Part shown: piece by piece, positions 14,886 to 32,948 of the stretch
Layout: each line of letters opens with the position of its first letter
Position numbering within the stretch: the first letter of the stretch is position 1
Assembly (NCBI GenBank): GCA_948434005.1
Contig: CAOJEH010000001.1
Location: forward strand, 219,880-283,879
Reading direction: 5' to 3'
Origin: an uncultured Mycoplasmatota bacterium
GTDB taxonomy: Bacteria > Bacillota_I > Bacilli_A > RF39 > UBA660
DNA: 64,000 bases
Program-made: the position numbers and the translations under genes
The notes under the pieces: generated by a model
The model's database searches: none
What the model was told of the DNA's origin: nothing
Seen by the model: the letters and a program-made list of their open reading frames with translations, nothing else

Positions 14886-15212
14886 ATGTATCAAAATAAG
14901 ATAGAGCTTTCTCCACAAGATATTTTAGAAAAAGAATTCAAAATAGATACACGTGGATATCGCTTAAAAGAAGTAGATCAGTTTTTAGATATTATAATTA
15001 ATGACTATGAGCAATTCTATACAATGATAAACGATTTAGAGAAAGAAAAAGCAGATTTATTGGGAGAGATGATGAAGTTAAAACAGGAACTTCGTAAAGT
15101 AAAAACTAGTGCAGAGATTGCAAAAAATAATGATACTCCTGAAATTACAAATGTAGATTTATTACGTAGACTTTCAAATCTTGAAAAAATGGTATATGGA
15201 AAAGAAGATTAA
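14886..15212 (+). CDS. gpsB: Cell-cycle protein GpsB (DivIVA-domain)
   Basis: IELSPQDILEKEFKIDTRGYRLKEVDQFLDIIINDYEQ is the DivIVA N-terminal domain, with a C-terminal coiled-coil. The start was set to the ATG at 14886 (GAGGTTGGTGA RBS). Confidence 0.8.
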   Translation: MYQNKIELSPQDILEKEFKIDTRGYRLKEVDQFLDIIINDYEQFYTMINDLEKEKADLLGEMMKLKQELRKVKTSAEIAKNNDTPEITNVDLLRRLSNLEKMVYGKED

Positions 15213-15213
15213 T

Positions 15214-15560
15214 ACTTAAGACAAACGCTGTATTCTAATAGAATATTGAGGAAAGTCCATGCTCACACGTACCTGTGATGGTCGTAGTGTTCGTGCTTAG
15301 GGAAAAAATAACCTAAGGTAGAGAAATCTAACGGCAGAGCAAAGACCTAAGTCGATTGATATGGTCTTCTCTTGAAAAGTGCCGCAGTGACGATTTTTTA
15401 GGAAACTAAAAGGTGAAACGTGGTAAACCCCGCGAGTGAGAAACCCAAATTATGGTAGGGGAGCTTTGATTAGGGAATAAGAACCGAGTCAGGGACCGAG
15501 TAGTCGGTAGATAAATGTTTGTCACCTCGTTGTGAGGTACAGAACATGGCTTATTAAGTA
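15214..15560 (+). ncRNA. rnpB: RNase P RNA (bacterial type B, Firmicutes)
   Basis: Contains the universally conserved GAGGAAAGTCCATGCTC (P4 5' strand) and ACAGAACATGGCTTA (P4 3' strand) elements, plus AGGGAAA...GGTGAAACGTGGTAAACCCC motifs. The 5' and 3' ends can pair (ACTTAAG / CTTATTAAGT). It lies directly downstream of gpsB, exactly as in B. subtilis. Confidence 0.85.
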
Positions 15561-25340: not shown

Positions 25341-26462
25341 TTGTTGGGTGATATTATGGGACTATTTAATAAAATAAAAAATATGTTTAAAAAAGAAGAA
25401 GTAGAAGAAGATATAAATTTATCAACAAAAGCTGTGGAAGAAATTATAAATGACGAAGAAATATCCACAAAAGTTGTTGAAAAAGATAAAGTAGAAGTAA
25501 AAGGAAAAAAAGTTAAGAAAGAAAATAAAGTAAAAAATGATGTTAAAATATATGAAAAAGGTTTAACTAAATCAAGAGAAGGCTTTGTATCAAAACTTGC
25601 TAATCTTACTAATAAATATACCAAAGTTAATGAAGAATATTTTGAGGAATTAGAGGAAATCTTAATCATGGCTGATATTGGTGTTAATACGGTTATGGAA
25701 TTTATGGATAGATTAAGAGAAAGAGTAAAACAAGAAAAAATAGAAGATCCAGAACTTTTAAAAGAGTTAATTGTAGATGAGTTATTTATTATTTATGTAA
25801 ATGATGAGGTATTAGTAAATAAAATCAATTATAGAGAAAATGGTCCGACAATTATTTTATTTGTAGGGGTAAATGGAGTAGGTAAAACTACTACTATTGG
25901 TAAACTTGCATATAACTTAAAAAATGAAGGTAAAAAGGTTTTACTTGTAGGAGCCGATACCTTTAGAGCAGGAGCTATAGAACAACTTCACGAATGGGGA
26001 GAAAAAATAGATGTAGATTTTTTTTCAAAAGAAGAAGGAAGTGATCCGTCAAGTGTAGTATATGATGGTGTAGAAAAAGCTAAAAGGGATAATTATGACG
26101 TAGTTTTAATTGATACAGCTGGTCGTCTTCAAAATAAGGTAAATCTTATGAAAGAATTAGAAAAGATGAACAAAGTTATTTCTTCTTTAGTAGAAGGCGG
26201 AGCAGATGAGACTCTTTTAGTAATAGATGCTACTACAGGACAAAATGGTATTTCTCAAGCGAAAAGTTTTAAAGAGATAACTAATATAACTGGTATAGTA
26301 CTTACTAAATTAGATGGAACTGCTAAAGGTGGTATAGTCTTAGCTATAAAAGAAGAAGTTAACTTACCTGTAAAATATATGGGTTTAGGTGAGGCAAAAG
26401 AAGATTTAAAAGTATTTGATATTGAAAAATATATATATGGGTTATTTAAAGATTTTATGTAG
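25341..26462 (+). CDS. ftsY: Signal recognition particle receptor FtsY
   Basis: NG domain with GVNGVGKTTTIGKLA, DTAGR and TKLDGTAKGG. The true start may be the internal MGLFNK. Confidence 0.9.
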   Translation: MLGDIMGLFNKIKNMFKKEEVEEDINLSTKAVEEIINDEEISTKVVEKDKVEVKGKKVKKENKVKNDVKIYEKGLTKSREGFVSKLANLTNKYTKVNEEYFEELEEILIMADIGVNTVMEFMDRLRERVKQEKIEDPELLKELIVDELFIIYVNDEVLVNKINYRENGPTIILFVGVNGVGKTTTIGKLAYNLKNEGKKVLLVGADTFRAGAIEQLHEWGEKIDVDFFSKEEGSDPSSVVYDGVEKAKRDNYDVVLIDTAGRLQNKVNLMKELEKMNKVISSLVEGGADETLLVIDATTGQNGISQAKSFKEITNITGIVLTKLDGTAKGGIVLAIKEEVNLPVKYMGLGEAKEDLKVFDIEKYIYGLFKDFM

Positions 26463-26470
26463 GTGATAAT

Positions 26471-26764
26471 ATGAAAGATTTTATCTATTACAATGATTTA
26501 TATGATTGCTATAAAGAATTACTAACCAAAAAGCAAAAGGAATACTTTGAAGATTACTATTTTTCTAACTTATCTTTAGGAGAAATAGCAGATAATTATA
26601 ATGTTAGTAGAAATGCAGTTCATAAACAATTACAAATAACTATTAATAAATTAAAAGAATATGAGGGTAAACTAAATATATATAAGAACAAGAAAGAAAT
26701 AGAATCTATTTTAGAAGAGACTGATATAAATAAAATTAAAAATAGATTAGAAAAGTTAATATAA
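26471..26764 (+). CDS. ylxM: YlxM/UPF0122 putative HTH protein of the SRP operon
   Basis: LLT.KQ..Y...Y..DLSLGEIA..Y.VSR.AV...L.....L..YE.KL matches B. subtilis YlxM. Canonical position after ftsY. Confidence 0.7.
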   Translation: MKDFIYYNDLYDCYKELLTKKQKEYFEDYYFSNLSLGEIADNYNVSRNAVHKQLQITINKLKEYEGKLNIYKNKKEIESILEETDINKIKNRLEKLI

Positions 26765-26790
26765 AAAATAGTGTTTAAACACTATTTTTT
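26764..26790. terminator. Bidirectional terminator between ylxM and the convergent inserted gene
   Basis: aaaaaatagtgtttaaacactattttttt: a perfect 10-bp stem (atagtgttta/aaacactatt) with an A-run on one side and a T-run on the other. Overlaps the stop of the minus-strand gene. Confidence 0.6.
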
Positions 26791-27645
26791 TGTAAATATT
26801 AATCTTTTAGAATCACTATAATCTTGATTTTCTAATTTTTCTAATGAGGTACCAAAAGCAATTGCATTTATCAATAATTGTTTTTGTTTTGAAATTGTTT
26901 GATCTTGATTTCTTACTAATTTTTTAAGCATATGATTTGAAACAGATAGTCTAGGTGCTTTTTCCCTAGGAATACTTTCCCTTACAAATAATAATTCACT
27001 TGCTATAGTTTGAAGATTTTCTGTAACAATTTTCACTTTACTATCTTGCTCTTCAAATAAACTATCACGTATTTCCATAGGTTTAGAATTATTTCCATCA
27101 ACTACTTCATATAGATATGCCTTTATATAATTGTAAGTATTAAGAACACCAGGTAATAGATTTATTGCATCTGGATCTTTAAAAAATTGTTCTAAATATG
27201 ATACATAAGTAACTTTTTCTAAAATATCGTTTACCTGTTTATGAAAAAGGCTTTTATTTTTTTCTGAAAACTTATTATAACTAATCCAATCATAAATACC
27301 ATATTTTTTAGCAGTTTTGCAACCTTTATCATCATATAATACAAACTCAATAGGAATAATGAATTTCCTTTTATTATTTCCAGCTTCAACAAAGCTAGAC
27401 GATAAAAAGTCTAGTTCAGATATCTTAATACAACTTAAAACCTCTAAAGTTTTATTTTCGACTTCATCCATTGATCTTATAACACCTTTAATTGTATAAT
27501 CTTTAGTACTATTGTATAGATTATCTTCCCTTTTATGAACTTGTTCATTTATAAGATTAGGATTTAATATAAGAGTTTGTTGTAGATTCATCAATTCTTC
27601 TGTAGTTAGTTTATCAAGAAATGGATAATTTGACATAATAATCAC
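26782..27645 (-). CDS. Hypothetical protein (287 aa), divergent partner of the HerA-like ATPase
   Basis: Strong AAAGGAGTGA RBS. No TM or signal peptide. No recognisable motif. Confidence 0.5.
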   Translation of the reverse strand: MIIMSNYPFLDKLTTEELMNLQQTLILNPNLINEQVHKREDNLYNSTKDYTIKGVIRSMDEVENKTLEVLSCIKISELDFLSSSFVEAGNNKRKFIIPIEFVLYDDKGCKTAKKYGIYDWISYNKFSEKNKSLFHKQVNDILEKVTYVSYLEQFFKDPDAINLLPGVLNTYNYIKAYLYEVVDGNNSKPMEIRDSLFEEQDSKVKIVTENLQTIASELLFVRESIPREKAPRLSVSNHMLKKLVRNQDQTISKQKQLLINAIAFGTSLEKLENQDYSDSKRLIFTKK

Positions 27646-27781
27646 TCCTTTTTAAAATTTAGCCAGTATTATATCATAAATTATTGTTATTGTAAATAAT
27701 TACTCTTTATCTTGTAAAAGTGCTAAACTTTTAGTATAATTTTAGATATAAGAATATACTTAGAAGAATAAGAGGGATAAT

Positions 27782-29902
27782 ATGTTTGATAGAATTACTT
27801 ATATTAGTGATAAAGGCGCAGATGTTAAATTAAAAGATGGTGAAGAAGTTGCTATAAACTTGATGAACTTACACTTAATATTTGAAGATAAAGATAAAAA
27901 AGTATTAGGTGAAGTTGATGATATGGACGGGAATATTGTAAAAGCAAGATTTTTAGGTGAAATTTCAAATGGAAGACTTATTGGTGGTGTAATTAGGAAA
28001 CCATCTCTTGATGCATCAATTAGAGTTATAGAACAAAGTGAAGTCCCTATGATTGTAGGTGAAGCAAAGGAAGGATATATGCCATTAGGAGTAAGCCCTT
28101 TTTATAATGATTATCCAGTATATTTAAATGTTAACAACTTCTTCAGTAATCACTTCGCTATATTAGGAAACAGTGGAGCCGGTAAGAGTTGTGGTGTATC
28201 AAGATTAATTCAAAATATGTTCCAAGATAAGGGGCTTTATCCATATAAATCAAATATGTTTTTCTTTGATTCTTCTGCAGAATACTATAATGCCTTTAAA
28301 GATTTAAGTTCTATTGATCCAAATTTTAATTATAAATTTATTACAACAAATGAAACTGATGGCATTGGGGAAAAATTAAGACTTCCAATTTGGTTATTAA
28401 GTGTTGATGATTTATGTCTACTTTTACAAATAACTAATCATTCCCAAATACCAATAATAGAAAGAATGTTAAAACTAGCCCTTATCTTTGCTGAAAAAGG
28501 AGAACAAGCTAATGCCTTTAAAAATCATTTGATTGCTAAAGCAGTAATGGCTATATTATATACGAATGAGACAAGTCCAAATAAAAGAAATGAAATATTT
28601 TCAATTCTAGATAGTTGTTCAACTCCTGAGTTTAATTTAGAAGCCCCTGTTCAAGGTATTGGTTATACTAGAAAATTCAGAGAATGCTTTATTATAGATT
28701 CTCAAGGACAATTTTCAGAAAGTGTTTTATTAACAGAATATGTATCGAGTTTCATAAATGAAGAATTTGATAATTACGAACCAAAAGGTGGAGTTTTCTA
28801 TACTTTAGAAGATTTAGAAAAAGCTCTTAACTTCACGCTTATTAGTGAAGGGTGGTTAAGAAACGAAAATACATATGGAGATGCTGTTACAATAAGAGTT
28901 AGATTACACTCATTAATAGTGGGTGATAATGCTAAATACTTTGATGTAAAAGACTATGTTACTGTAGAACAACATTTATCATCATTACTAATTTCAAATG
29001 GTAAAAAGTATCAAATTGTTAATATGAACTTTGATGATGTAGATGATTCGTTTGCTAAGGTAATAGTAAAAATATATTCAAGATTAATATTTGAATTTTC
29101 TAAATCACTAAAAGATAGAGCGTCTATTCCTTTTCATGTAATTGTTGAAGAGGCTCATAGGTATATTCAAAATGATACAGATAGATTTTTAATTGGATAT
29201 AATATATTTGAACGTATTGCTAAAGAAGGTCGTAAATATGGTGTTTTGTTAGGTATTATTACACAAAGACCAGTAGAACTTTCAGATACAGTTATTTCCC
29301 AATGTTCAAGTTTCTTAATATTTAAAATAAACCACCCTACTGATGTTGAATATATTAGAAAAATGGTACCAAATATTAGTGATGAGATTATTGAAAAACA
29401 AAAAACATTACAACCTGGTACATGTTTAGGATTCGGTATGGCCTTTACTATTCCTTTAATAGTAAAACTAAAAATGCCAAATCCTGCACCTTTAAGTGGA
29501 AACTGTGATGTTGTAACTATATGGTCAGGAAGACAGAGTAATTCATCAAATATAGAACAGAAAGCAACTAATAATACATCTATACCCGAGGCTAATATGA
29601 CTGAAAACTCTATGCCTATTAGTTTTGATAATCAACAAAATAATAATAATGAAATGATTATAAATACTAATAATGAAGTAAAAGAAGTACCAAATGCTAA
29701 TGATAATTTAATGAATAATAATATAGTATTAAATGATCAAACTGCAGCCTTAGCAAATAGTATCCCAGAACAAATTATGAATACTAACCCAAAAATAGAA
29801 GAACCACTAATAACAACAGAATCTAATGGCCCAAATATTGATTCTTTAAATATAGACGATATTATAAGTGCTCCAGATATAGAGGATATGGATGATGAAT
29901 AA
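27782..29902 (+). CDS. HerA/FtsK-superfamily (DUF87-type) P-loop ATPase with a low-complexity N/Q/acidic C-terminal tail
   Basis: After a ~130-aa N-terminal barrel-like region comes PVYLNVNNFFSNHFAILGNSGAGKSCGVSRL, the DUF87 signature hhh.G.TGSGKS. The Walker B / helicase-like segment is FHVIVEEAHRY. The C-terminal ~190 aa are N-, Q-, D- and E-rich. Confidence 0.65.
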   Translation: MFDRITYISDKGADVKLKDGEEVAINLMNLHLIFEDKDKKVLGEVDDMDGNIVKARFLGEISNGRLIGGVIRKPSLDASIRVIEQSEVPMIVGEAKEGYMPLGVSPFYNDYPVYLNVNNFFSNHFAILGNSGAGKSCGVSRLIQNMFQDKGLYPYKSNMFFFDSSAEYYNAFKDLSSIDPNFNYKFITTNETDGIGEKLRLPIWLLSVDDLCLLLQITNHSQIPIIERMLKLALIFAEKGEQANAFKNHLIAKAVMAILYTNETSPNKRNEIFSILDSCSTPEFNLEAPVQGIGYTRKFRECFIIDSQGQFSESVLLTEYVSSFINEEFDNYEPKGGVFYTLEDLEKALNFTLISEGWLRNENTYGDAVTIRVRLHSLIVGDNAKYFDVKDYVTVEQHLSSLLISNGKKYQIVNMNFDDVDDSFAKVIVKIYSRLIFEFSKSLKDRASIPFHVIVEEAHRYIQNDTDRFLIGYNIFERIAKEGRKYGVLLGIITQRPVELSDTVISQCSSFLIFKINHPTDVEYIRKMVPNISDEIIEKQKTLQPGTCLGFGMAFTIPLIVKLKMPNPAPLSGNCDVVTIWSGRQSNSSNIEQKATNNTSIPEANMTENSMPISFDNQQNNNNEMIINTNNEVKEVPNANDNLMNNNIVLNDQTAALANSIPEQIMNTNPKIEEPLITTESNGPNIDSLNIDDIISAPDIEDMDDE

Positions 29903-29926
29903 AAACTAGTATATCTAGTTTTTTTA
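29902..29926 (+). terminator. Terminator after the HerA-like gene
   Basis: aaaactag-tatat-ctagttttttt. Confidence 0.5.
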
Positions 29927-29953
29927 GTGTATAATTATTATTAGGTGATAAAA

Positions 29954-31261
29954 ATGTTTGAAAGCTTAGGTGACAGATTACAAAATGTAATACATAAGGT
30001 TAAAGGTTATGGAACAATAACAGAAGATAATATATCAGAAATGATGAGAGAAATTAGATTAGCCTTATTAGAAGCAGATGTTAATTATAAAGTAGTAAAA
30101 GAATTTACAAAAGAAGTAAAAGAAAAAGCTTTAGGAGAAGAAGTAAGAAAAAGTATAAAGCCAGGTGATTTATTTGTAAAGATAGTTCATGATGAGCTAA
30201 CAGAATTATTAGGTGGAGAGAGTACCCCTCTAAATTTAAAGGGTAATCCCGCAACATTAATGTTAGTAGGTCTACAAGGTAGTGGTAAAACTACGACTAT
30301 TGGTAAACTATCTAATTTAATTAGAAAAAAGCATGCAAAAAAGCCTCTCTTAGTAGCGTGTGATGTATATAGGCCAGCAGCAATAGATCAATTAAAACAA
30401 ATAGGTAAACAACTAAATATAGAAGTATATGAAGAAGGAAAGAAAAATCCTGTAGAAATATCTAAAAACGCTATTATTTATGCTAAAGAAAATGGATATG
30501 ACTATGTATTAATAGATACTGCAGGTCGTCTTCATATAGATGAAGAGTTAATGGTTGAATTAGAAAATATTAGAACTGAAATAACTCCAGACGAAATACT
30601 ATTAGTAATAGATTCTATGATGGGACAAGATGCAATTAATGTTATAAATGGTTTTAATGATAAACTACCACTAACAGGTGTCATTTTAACTAAACTTGAT
30701 GGTGATACTAGAGGTGGAGTAGCTCTATCAGTTAGACATATTACTAATGTACCTATAAAGTTTATAGGTGTTAGTGAAAAAATGGATGGAATTGATTATT
30801 TTGATCCTGAAAGAATGGCCGGAAGAATTTTAGGAATGGGTGATGTTGTATCTTTAGTTGAAAAAGCAACAGAAGCTATAGATGAAAAAGAAGCAGAAAA
30901 AACAGCTAAAAGAATGCAATCAGGTAAATTTGATCTAGAAGATTTCTTATCAACAATGAAGCAAATGAAAAAGCTAGGACCTCTAGAAAATTTATTAAAA
31001 TTAATACCAGGTGCTAAAAAAATGGGACTTAATAACATTAAAGTAGATCCCAAAGATATGGCTCACATAGAAGCAATTGTATTATCAATGACTCCTAAAG
31101 AAAGAAGAAATCCAGATATTATAAAAGCTAGTAGAAAAACAAGAATCGCTAAAGGCAGTGGTAGATCAGTACAAGAAGTGAACAAACTATTACAACAATT
31201 CGATCAAATGAAAAAAATGATGAAACAAATGACTAATGGCAACTTTAAGTTACCGTTCTAG
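29954..31261 (+). CDS. ffh: Signal recognition particle protein Ffh
   Basis: N domain, G domain (GLQGSGKTTTIGKL, DTAGR, TKLDGDTRGG) and a Met-rich M domain. Has its own TTAGTG-N-TATAAT-like promoter after the insertion. Confidence 0.9.
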   Translation: MFESLGDRLQNVIHKVKGYGTITEDNISEMMREIRLALLEADVNYKVVKEFTKEVKEKALGEEVRKSIKPGDLFVKIVHDELTELLGGESTPLNLKGNPATLMLVGLQGSGKTTTIGKLSNLIRKKHAKKPLLVACDVYRPAAIDQLKQIGKQLNIEVYEEGKKNPVEISKNAIIYAKENGYDYVLIDTAGRLHIDEELMVELENIRTEITPDEILLVIDSMMGQDAINVINGFNDKLPLTGVILTKLDGDTRGGVALSVRHITNVPIKFIGVSEKMDGIDYFDPERMAGRILGMGDVVSLVEKATEAIDEKEAEKTAKRMQSGKFDLEDFLSTMKQMKKLGPLENLLKLIPGAKKMGLNNIKVDPKDMAHIEAIVLSMTPKERRNPDIIKASRKTRIAKGSGRSVQEVNKLLQQFDQMKKMMKQMTNGNFKLPF

Positions 31262-31271
31262 GAGGAATATT

Positions 31272-31817
31272 ATGAGTCAAAAAGATATAAGAAAGTCAGC
31301 AGATATTATATATAGTATTTGTAATAAAAATGGAAGTAATAAGCTTACAGGATATTTTACTACAAGCCCTTCTAATACATGGATAAATAATGATGGCTAT
31401 CTTGAAATTAGAAGTGTTACTAGAAATAATAATTCTATATTTGATACTATTGGTACGATATTTGATGACAATGTTATAATGAAACAGATTGAAACAAAAG
31501 AGGATAATGTATTTTATGATTTAATATCATGGACTTCGGATGGAAAAGAATGTACAATAGTAAATTTTGAAACAAAAGAAGATTTAGAAAAAGTATATGA
31601 AAATGTATCTAGAAAACATAGAGAACATATAAATATTAGTAATATAGAACAAATATGTAATGAAACAGGAGCTATCTATTCTAATATTGATTATAAAAGA
31701 TTTGATAGTCATAAGAAAAAGGAAGCAAAAATTACTGCTCAATCATTAGTAGATGAATTAGAAACAAGAAACTATGAATCTGATGTAAAAGAATCTCGTA
31801 ATATGAAAGTAAGTTAA
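31272..31817 (+). CDS. Hypothetical protein (~181 aa from MSQKDIRK)
   Basis: AGGAGG RBS. Occupies the position where rpsP normally follows ffh. Confidence 0.4.
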   Translation: MSQKDIRKSADIIYSICNKNGSNKLTGYFTTSPSNTWINNDGYLEIRSVTRNNNSIFDTIGTIFDDNVIMKQIETKEDNVFYDLISWTSDGKECTIVNFETKEDLEKVYENVSRKHREHINISNIEQICNETGAIYSNIDYKRFDSHKKKEAKITAQSLVDELETRNYESDVKESRNMKVS

Positions 31818-31899: not shown

Positions 31900-32232
31900 A
31901 TGTTTGGAAACACAAATGAATTTGAAATGAATTCAAATATTGCCGGTAATAATAATGTTATCGAAAATGAAATGAATGTTGATATCGATATGGTATCAAA
32001 TAATGGTCCACAAAATGAAATAAATGGTGGTATGTCAAGCCCAATAACTGAAGCAGTTCAAGAAAGATGTGTTCATAGAACTATCGTTCATGAAGTTCCA
32101 CATGTTTGTCCAATTAGAACTAGAGTAATTAATCACCATGTATATAAACATACATATAGACCATCATACTCTTGCTGTGAAGAAAACACAGTAACTAATG
32201 TTCAATGTGGATCTTGCTGTCAATTTAGATAA
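31900..32232 (+). CDS. CotD-family spore coat protein-like (His/Cys-rich)
   Basis: C-terminal region CVHRTIVHEVPHVCPIRTRVINHHVYKHTYRPSYSCCEENTVTNVQCGSCCQF. It has spaced V-H-x-T/V-H and P-H repeats with paired Cys, as in B. subtilis CotD. The N-terminal half is N-rich and low-complexity. Confidence 0.5.
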   Translation: MFGNTNEFEMNSNIAGNNNVIENEMNVDIDMVSNNGPQNEINGGMSSPITEAVQERCVHRTIVHEVPHVCPIRTRVINHHVYKHTYRPSYSCCEENTVTNVQCGSCCQFR

Positions 32233-32276: not shown

Positions 32277-32370
32277 GTAAAAAATCAGAATTTTGTAAAT
32301 AATAATAGTAAAATATAGTTGACATATGTATATACTTTGTATATACTAAAAACAAATGGAGATGATGTTG

Positions 32371-32613
32371 ATGGAAGCAAGAATTCAAAAGTGGGGAAAT
32401 TCATCTGGAATTAGAATACCAAGTAGTATCTTAAAATCTTTAAATATTAAAACTAATGATATATTAAATATTGAACAACAAGAGGATAAAATAATTATTA
32501 CTATACCAAAGAAAAAAAAGATATCACTAGAAAGTAGATTTAAAGAATATCATGGAAAAAATCTAGCTAAGGAATTTTCTTGGGATAAAGATATGGGGAA
32601 AGAAATATGGTAA
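32371..32613 (+). CDS. mazE: MazE/PemI-family antitoxin (SpoVT/AbrB fold)
   Basis: MEARIQKWGNSSGIRIPSSILKSLNIKTNDILNIEQQEDKIIIT is the swapped-hairpin AbrB-type motif. Its stop overlaps the start of the toxin gene. Confidence 0.7.
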   Translation: MEARIQKWGNSSGIRIPSSILKSLNIKTNDILNIEQQEDKIIITIPKKKKISLESRFKEYHGKNLAKEFSWDKDMGKEIW

Positions 32614-32948
32614 AAAAATATATACCAAAGCAAGGTGATGTTGTTTTTTTTGATTTTAATCCTACAAAAGGACATGAACAAGCAGGAGCTAGACCAGCTG
32701 TTGTTATAAGTAATAATATTTTTAATCAAAATACTAAAATGGTTATTGTATGTCCTATTACATCTAATAATAAGGAGTTTCCAACACACCATGAGTTAGA
32801 GGATACTAAGAATGTATATGGATCAGTTTTATGTGAACATATAAGAAGCATAGATTATGAAATTAGAAATTTAAGGTTTGTCGAAAAGCTAAGTAACAAT
32901 GACTTTATAAGTATAATTACATTATTAAATGCATGTATTGAGGAATAA
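32607..32948 (+). CDS. mazF: MazF/PemK-family endoribonuclease toxin
   Basis: YIPKQGDVVFFDFNPTKGHEQAGARPAVVISNNIFNQNTKMVIVCPITS is the canonical PemK/MazF N-terminus. Confidence 0.8.
   Translation: MVKKYIPKQGDVVFFDFNPTKGHEQAGARPAVVISNNIFNQNTKMVIVCPITSNNKEFPTHHELEDTKNVYGSVLCEHIRSIDYEIRNLRFVEKLSNNDFISIITLLNACIEE

Follow-up and report, generated by a model that had tools for sequence, protein, structure and literature searches.

The DNA considered here is a window of 64,000 nucleotides (nt) from an uncultured Mycoplasmatota bacterium (contig CAOJEH010000001.1, positions 219,880 to 283,879). Between ylxM and ffh, genes of the signal recognition particle (SRP) pathway, it carries herA, coding for a HerA-type ATPase of 706 amino acids (aa), and a minus-strand open reading frame (ORF), orf287. 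An original prediction made on this sequence had taken the two genes together as a single 3.1-kb insertion that splits the ftsY-ylxM-ffh operon and encodes a candidate anti-phage module. The best explanation overall, to which a probability of roughly 0.6 is given here, is that two unrelated things lie between ylxM and ffh, namely a core gene, herA, and an accessory gene, orf287. herA is a SIR2-less, syntenic and slowly evolving member of the branch of ATPases that work in SIR2-HerA systems, and it is very probably a vertically inherited core gene of its lineage and not a mobile defence insertion. orf287 is a separate, patchily distributed and fast-evolving accessory gene.

Orthologues were sought in one genome per species, and 185 species-level genomes encode herA. 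Of these 185 loci, 80 were kept for the study of synteny, so the synteny counts are drawn from genomes encoding a herA orthologue. These 80 loci come from uncultured gut metagenome-assembled genomes designated Bacilli bacterium, Tenericutes, Mycoplasma sp. CAG:877, Candidatus Faecimonas and Candidatus Onthousia, the last two of which are placed by NCBI in Bacilli incertae sedis. herA is intact in all 80, coding for 607-942 aa, and no pseudogenes were seen among them. Upstream sequence is available for 74 loci, and in every one of them ylxM is directly 5' of herA, the median gap being 103 nt and the gap being shorter than 200 nt in 64 of them; ffh follows 44-180 nt 3' of herA in most genome loci. 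Contigs with 74-79% identical copies have ftsY-ylxM-herA-ffh on one strand and lack orf287. In a deeper subgroup among the ylxM-anchored loci described below, whose HerA is 53-60% identical to that of the window, only 11-21 nt separate ylxM and herA. A protein search returned thousands of proteins, the top 120 of them each having 71% identity or more and one carrying the label “Bacilli bacterium”, and clustering at 50% identity places the whole herA clade in two clusters. Searches of phage and plasmid sequences gave no close copy of herA, the best match being 31% identical.

A second synteny test was made on metagenome loci anchored on ylxM instead of herA. herA adjoins ylxM in 64 of the 72 informative loci. 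In four loci ylxM is followed directly by ffh, and these are outgroups (L173, L179 and L180 among them) with Ffh 51-72% identical to that of the window, as against 73-89% in the loci with herA. When the ylxM-ffh junction is compared across relatives, the direct, herA-less junction is thus confined to outgroups and a recent insertion finds no support. What survives of the claim that an insertion splits ylxM from ffh is that herA does stand between the two genes relative to L173, L179 and L180; the 3.1-kb segment did not arrive as one unit. The rate of evolution agrees with the position, the median identity to the window being 87% for Ffh, 80% for RNase J, 73% for herA, 71% for FtsY and 54% for YlxM, and just 26% for orf287.

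The signals around herA predict a separate transcription unit with its own conserved promoter and terminator. A CTTGTAAAA-17-TATAAT element is found ~45 nt 5' of the herA ATG in all 12 relatives whose upstream regions were read by eye (L005, L008, L011, L019, L020, L026, L027, L033, L054, L061, L083 and L096). The downstream elements were read in nine relatives, where herA is followed, much as in the window, by a hairpin with a T-run and ffh is preceded by a (TG)TATAAT-type -10 box and an AGGTGAT-type ribosome-binding site (RBS). Since these promoters and terminators are common to the sampled relatives, they are not traces left behind by a recent insertion. In the window, the end of ylxM at a bidirectional terminator and the start of ffh behind a promoter of its own were both foreseen correctly. 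The arms of the terminator palindrome are 100% complementary, and the terminator scan overlooked it because of its AT-rich stem; it is common to ylxM and the minus-strand orf287, whose 3' end it overlaps. The ffh ORF opens at 29945, and its true start is the ATG downstream of the RBS AGGTGAT. The GC content is 0.22-0.31 over this stretch without a compositional break, no integrase and no meaningful flanking direct repeats are present at the locus, as had also been noticed before, and an Rfam search of the ylxM-ffh region gave no RNA element. A mobile element or prophage remnant was considered for the locus and rejected for want of an integrase, repeats, a GC shift, and phage or plasmid copies.

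The ATPase is, judging from its sequence, a true HerA-family protein with intact catalytic motifs, in agreement with its first assignment to HerA/DUF87. It scores 73.9 bits with Pfam DUF87 (PF01935), above the gathering cut-off of 23.2, and its top PADLOC model is the HerA model PDLC04102 (350 bits, E = 4e-105). The NCBIfam “anti-phage-associated HerA” models give 127-154 bits, far under their equivalog cut-offs of 800-850, and the NCBIfam HerA equivalogs give 102-104 bits against cut-offs of 800-970. Nine HerA chains in the PDB match it with E values from 1e-41 to 1e-7, the top one being 9c1m (1e-41). Both of the motifs originally quoted, PVYLNVNNFFSNHFAILGNSGAGKSCG and FHVIVEEAHRY, are present in the product; Walker A (GNSGAGKS, K135) and Walker B (FHVIVEEAH, E456/E457) are intact, and the catalytic residues are invariant across 10 diverse orthologues. 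The protein is made up of an N-terminal region (residues ~1-110), a RecA-like core with a helical insert (~110-585) and a low-complexity tail (586-706). The N-terminal region would be a barrel by homology to SIR2-type HerA.

The relationship to SIR2-HerA systems is close in the core and weak at the N-terminus. The four relatives sampled at 28-35% identity are without exception SIR2-HerA pairs, in which the co-directional SIR2 gene overlaps the herA start. P0140 (L097) and P0160 (L098/L099) lie in defence islands that also encode a type I restriction enzyme, GmrSD and Mrr, and SIR2-HerA pairs are also carried by the Listeria plasmid pPIR00540 and the Lactobacillus kefiranofaciens plasmid pWW2. 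Solved examples of such systems include 8wiv and 8su9/8j4u. The window HerA is like the HerA subunit of these systems in ATPase family and domain order, in its 28-35% identity over residues ~50 to 585 and in its conserved Walker A, Walker B and QRP motifs. It is unlike them in that its locus has no SIR2, in that it is fixed in the core genome instead of lying in defence islands or plasmids, and in that its clade carries a disordered tail. Furthermore, the first ~115 positions of PDLC04102 are unmatched. PDLC04102 is a model of SIR2-linked HerAs, which P0160 matches end to end with 804 bits, and it aligns from model position 115 in the window HerA and from ~85-147 across the solo HerAs, that is, the relatives whose genes have no SIR2 beside them. 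In the window HerA, residues 1-75 are unaligned to the model, and homology to SIR2-linked HerA begins near residue 32. The unmatched part of the model is the N-terminal barrel region, the SIR2-binding site in SIR2-HerA systems, where SIR2 docks on the HerA beta-barrel domains (PMC11472057). The SIR2-docking surface would thus have diverged in the window HerA. A tblastn search with two SIR2 partners gave no hit either in the window or at the solo loci, and no Pfam or PADLOC match to a DUF4297 or NurA partner was obtained on orf287 or the window neighbours. In a neighbour-joining tree of 74 full-length HerA representatives, drawn without support values and with six SIR2-side contexts sampled, the solo HerAs form a single clade nested beside SIR2-linked branches.

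The relatives at 31-46% identity are all solo genes in core neighbourhoods. P0277 (L096) lies in an ftsY-x-ylxM-herA-ffh arrangement, x being an intervening ORF; P0282 (L095) is flanked by rpmH-rnpA-yidC-jag and by dnaA-dnaN, at the replication origin (oriC); P0280 (L091/L092) is part of PP2C-herA-sepF-divIVA-ileS; P0135 (L093/L094) adjoins an LtaS-like sulfatase gene; and P0148 (L100) is convergent with LexA, a neighbour read by eye. P0133 (L101/L102) follows RmuC: a gene for this RmuC-family recombination nuclease (L101 4331-5398, L102 1793-2860) lies on the same strand 44 nt 5' of herA. This RmuC-linked solo HerA is 42% identical to that of the window, and its nuclease is the sole candidate operonic partner of that kind among the solo HerAs seen; no RmuC is present in the window. 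A literature search on HerA with ylxM, or on HerA as a solo, orphan or housekeeping protein, gave no relevant result.

The tail following the ATPase core varies from 58 to 358 aa across the SRP-linked HerA clade, and its end is marked by a short conserved peptide, examples being EPLITVP, QPMITVP, GTPLVSITP, GVPLINL and PIPEINL. Of 57 orthologues, 41 have the pattern P[LEM][IVF]x[ILV], which was defined after the data had been seen, among their final 45 residues, whereas the number expected from shuffled tails is 1.0. The window tail has no match to the strict pattern; it carries a relaxed variant, EPLITT, and then the sub-clade motif SLNIDDIISAPD. The solo relatives P0133, P0135, P0148 and P0282 are 576-587 aa long and end at or just beyond the ATPase core, and the sampled SIR2-linked HerAs are 602-685 aa. 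The terminal peptide may tether HerA to a partner. It bears a loose likeness to peptides that bind the clamp or other partners, the MutL motif for example, but no relationship is claimed.

As to function, HerA would most likely be a ring motor driven by nucleoside triphosphates that acts on DNA in chromosome maintenance, that is, in repair, recombination or segregation. A housekeeping role on DNA is given a little less than an even chance; it is suggested because of the activity of the family, the oriC, sepF/divIVA, RmuC and LexA neighbours of solo HerAs elsewhere and the intact catalytic motifs. The role would be of the same kind as that of HerA-NurA end resection, in which a hexameric HerA-type ATPase has a housekeeping function in DNA repair, and Sulfolobus HerA (4d2i) does match the window HerA in sequence at 1.7e-28. 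However, the window HerA is far under the equivalog cut-offs, it has no adjacent NurA, orf287 has no NurA match, and the RmuC of one lineage is the only nuclease seen adjoining a solo relative. HerA and FtsK were reportedly placed in the same superfamily by Iyer et al. in 2004, and FtsK has a long low-complexity linker. The window HerA is like FtsK/SpoIIIE in its long low-complexity segment, although this is C-terminal, and in that one solo relative adjoins sepF-divIVA and another lies at oriC. It differs in that the FtsK_SpoIIIE Pfam match (18.3 bits, under the 24-bit cut-off) covers only 38 residues around the P-loop, and in that neither the N-terminal membrane domain nor the gamma domain of FtsK was found in it.

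A more specific account is rather unlikely as a whole: a SIR2-HerA-type ATPase would have lost its NADase partner and become, across a whole lineage of gut Bacilli with reduced genomes, a domesticated core motor for chromosome maintenance, possibly essential, anchored by its C-terminal motif to the replication, repair or division machinery, with orf287 as a lineage-variable modulator or antagonist. The change may also have run in reverse, with SIR2-HerA immunity drawn from a housekeeping stock that the solo clade represents.

Among the alternatives, the one that survives best is that herA is a solo immune sensor and nickase resident in the core genome, whose effector is remote or is recruited via the C-terminal peptide. 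Descent from, or a sister relationship to, the SIR2-HerA ATPases would fit such a function, and the HerA of SIR2-HerA systems is reported to have a nickase activity of its own that is repressed by Sir2 (PMC13434337). Defence genes, however, are not typically universal, fixed at one locus, slow to evolve or set among core genes in several lineages, the SIR2-binding N-terminal region has diverged and SIR2 was not found nearby, so this alternative is considered improbable.

The other gene between ylxM and ffh, orf287, was correctly recognized as an ORF with a strong RBS on the minus strand, although its length of 287 aa needs correction. Its real start is most likely the ATG at 27636, giving 284 aa, because AAAGGAG precedes this codon with a 7-nt spacer and because the database copy P0001 and the gene call in L001 agree with it; the GTG at 27645 falls within that RBS. 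Only 29 homologues were found in 5.8 billion proteins. Among the loci fetched, orf287 is always read from the minus strand, and wherever its upstream flank is present it stands between ylxM and herA. On the HerA tree, orf287 turns up at three points that are apart from one another (the window species, L016 and the group L030/L036/L038/L040), and sister tips are without it, including L011, the closest relative sampled, whose HerA is 83% identical. Between these groups orf287 is 23-34% identical and the flanking herA 71-78%, and the only well-conserved part of orf287 is the C-terminal motif AIAFGT(S/T)LEKL..NY.D.K.LI(F/Y). The earlier description of the product as uncharacterised stands: neither a family nor a fold was detected. 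An AlphaFold2 model built from a family of 22 sequences is a confident all-alpha structure, and fold searches with it matched no known fold. The PADLOC search proposed for both genes thus returned the HerA model for one and nothing for the other. In Pfam, NCBIfam, PADLOC, PHROGs and PDB sequences, the orf287 family has no match except to PBECR2, a phage nuclease domain (Barnase/EndoU/ColicinE5-D/RelE-like), which Pfam reports weakly (4e-4) in one of ten members. This match is taken as noise, as the nine other members and the profile and fold searches give it no backing; likewise, orf287 as a SIR2, DUF4297, NurA or other nuclease was rejected, having no profile or fold support.

In other genomes the ylxM-herA spacer holds different cargo, including an unannotated ORF of 370 aa, proteins of 256 and 124 aa and several stretches 1-2.4 kb long (L016 5119-5889, L031 5520-5894, L086 1351-2463, and L125, L126, L111 and L123). 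Such unrelated cargo in one and the same spacer makes it a small hotspot of accessory genes between two core genes.

These data bear directly on the module first proposed, in which herA and orf287 would form a novel HerA-plus-effector anti-phage system inserted into the SRP operon. It has in its favour that the core of HerA is nearest to the SIR2-HerA defence ATPases, that orf287 is fast-evolving, patchy, without a known fold and seen beside herA only, and that one family member gives the PBECR2 match. Nevertheless, most genomes with herA lack orf287, including the closest relative sampled; herA and orf287 are divergent and read from separate promoters, whereas SIR2 and HerA genes overlap co-directionally; the hallmarks of a mobile element are absent; and orf287 has no PADLOC or PHROG match, the PBECR2 hit being restricted to one of ten members. 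With herA at a fixed, syntenic locus, conserved at the level of FtsY and lacking a SIR2 partner (DUF4297 and NurA being absent as well), the defence-module reading is therefore rejected as very unlikely. Correspondingly, it can be held with considerable confidence that herA and orf287 are not an obligate module.

The least likely alternative is that herA serves the SRP pathway of FtsY, YlxM and Ffh, for example as a motor for membrane-protein targeting or as a YlxM-linked regulator, since ylxM-herA adjacency, although it spans HerA identities from 41% to 85% and leaves 11-21 nt between the two genes in one subgroup, is set against a herA promoter and terminator of its own in most lineages, against related solo HerAs that lie at oriC, the division (dcw) cluster, RmuC or LexA loci and not at SRP genes, and against the fact that the described loci of HerA-family activity belong to DNA-acting enzymes (PMC11472057). 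Co-transcription of herA with the SRP genes is likewise weakened by the private promoter and terminator, and it may hold in the subgroup with 11-21-nt gaps.

Several points weigh against the preferred reading of a core herA beside an unrelated accessory gene. Besides the solo immune sensor described above, four of the 72 ylxM-anchored loci have neither herA nor ffh downstream (L136, L154, L169 and L177), of which L136 and L169 are rearranged and L154 ends after an orf287 homologue. The occurrence of orf287 beside herA only leaves room for a functional link between the two. The neighbourhoods of solo HerAs vary by lineage, with RmuC alone looking operonic. To these must be added the unsupported branches and few SIR2-side contexts of the tree and the post hoc definition of the tail pattern.

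Bacterial HerA is now annotated almost reflexively as anti-phage, and both PADLOC and NCBIfam models match the window HerA strongly. In at least 185 species-level genomes and thousands of metagenome copies, however, this relative of the SIR2-HerA ATPases behaves like a housekeeping gene, which is a warning against defence calls made on single genes. herA is a candidate for a DNA motor so far unrecognised in poorly known gut bacteria, and it offers a concrete example for studying the exchange between SIR2-HerA immunity and the core cell machinery. In addition, orf287 represents a small protein family whose structure is predicted with confidence and matches no known fold.

Table 1. Positions of the features in the window, those of the ftsY-ffh locus first
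Feature	Position	Strand	Remarks
ftsY	25341-26462		Pfam SRP54
ylxM	26471-26764	+	UPF0122 helix-turn-helix protein, Pfam PF04297, 7e-24; conserved upstream neighbour of herA
Palindrome, bidirectional intrinsic terminator	26763-26790		Perfect, 14+14 nt, AAAAAATAGTGTTT/AAACACTATTTTTT, with flanking A/T runs
orf287, orphan gene	26782-27645	-	Probable true start ATG 27636, 284 aa
Promoter-like site of orf287	27668-27696	-	TTTACA, 17 nt, TATAAT, TG extension; putative, by consensus match (11/12)
herA promoter	27712-27740	+	cTTGTAAaa, 17 nt, TATAAT; ~45 nt 5' of ATG
herA	27782-29902	+	706-aa HerA/FtsK-superfamily ATPase
Disordered C-terminal tail of HerA	29537-29899	+	N/S/P/T-rich; lineage-specific
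Terminator-like hairpin and T-run after herA	29903-29925	+	
ffh promoter, RBS and start	29928-29956	+	Extended -10 TGTATAAT at 29928-29935, RBS AGGTGAT, ATG 29954
193-aa ORF (called 181 aa)	31236-31817		Directly 3' of ffh; no family match
110-aa Cys/His-rich protein	31900-32232		Downstream of ffh; no Pfam match
MazE-like antitoxin (85-aa ORF, called 80 aa) and PemK/MazF-like toxin (113 aa)	32356-32948		Downstream of ffh; ORFs overlap by a few bases
RNase P RNA, bacterial class B	15212-15558		RF00011, 279 bits
ORF, 457 aa	1344-2717		No Pfam match at E <= 1e-5
ORF, 264 aa	20311-21105		No Pfam match at E <= 1e-5
ORF, 468 aa	34138-35544		No Pfam match at E <= 1e-5
ORF, 585 aa	39804-41561		No Pfam match at E <= 1e-5

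Some minor variation of the locus is found among the relatives. A small ORF of 94-115 aa without a Pfam match lies between ftsY and ylxM in several lineages (L005 5276-5605, L096 5170-5517 and L136 4217-4501, for example), and the window has none. In one sub-lineage, three co-directional genes are placed between herA and ffh (L052, L064, L067, L077, L078, L080 and L083-L085); they are an unannotated ORF of ~410 aa (413 aa), an ORF of 312 aa read by eye as fmt and an unannotated ORF of 247 aa.

Downstream of ffh, the 193-aa ORF is a lineage-specific orphan with only weak relatives (23-25% identity) at two other loci, L075 and L081. The 110-aa Cys/His-rich protein resembles CotD-type spore-coat proteins by eye; it is found downstream of ffh, and usually near it, in 52 of the 80 genome loci, with 45-88% identity. 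The MazE/MazF-like pair is present in contigs of the same species and is not among the genes called in the relatives L005-L010. RNase P RNA is the sole Rfam family above threshold in the window. An ORF without a Pfam match that is placed similarly to one of those listed last in Table 1 occurs after recX in L006/L007 and codes for 472 aa.

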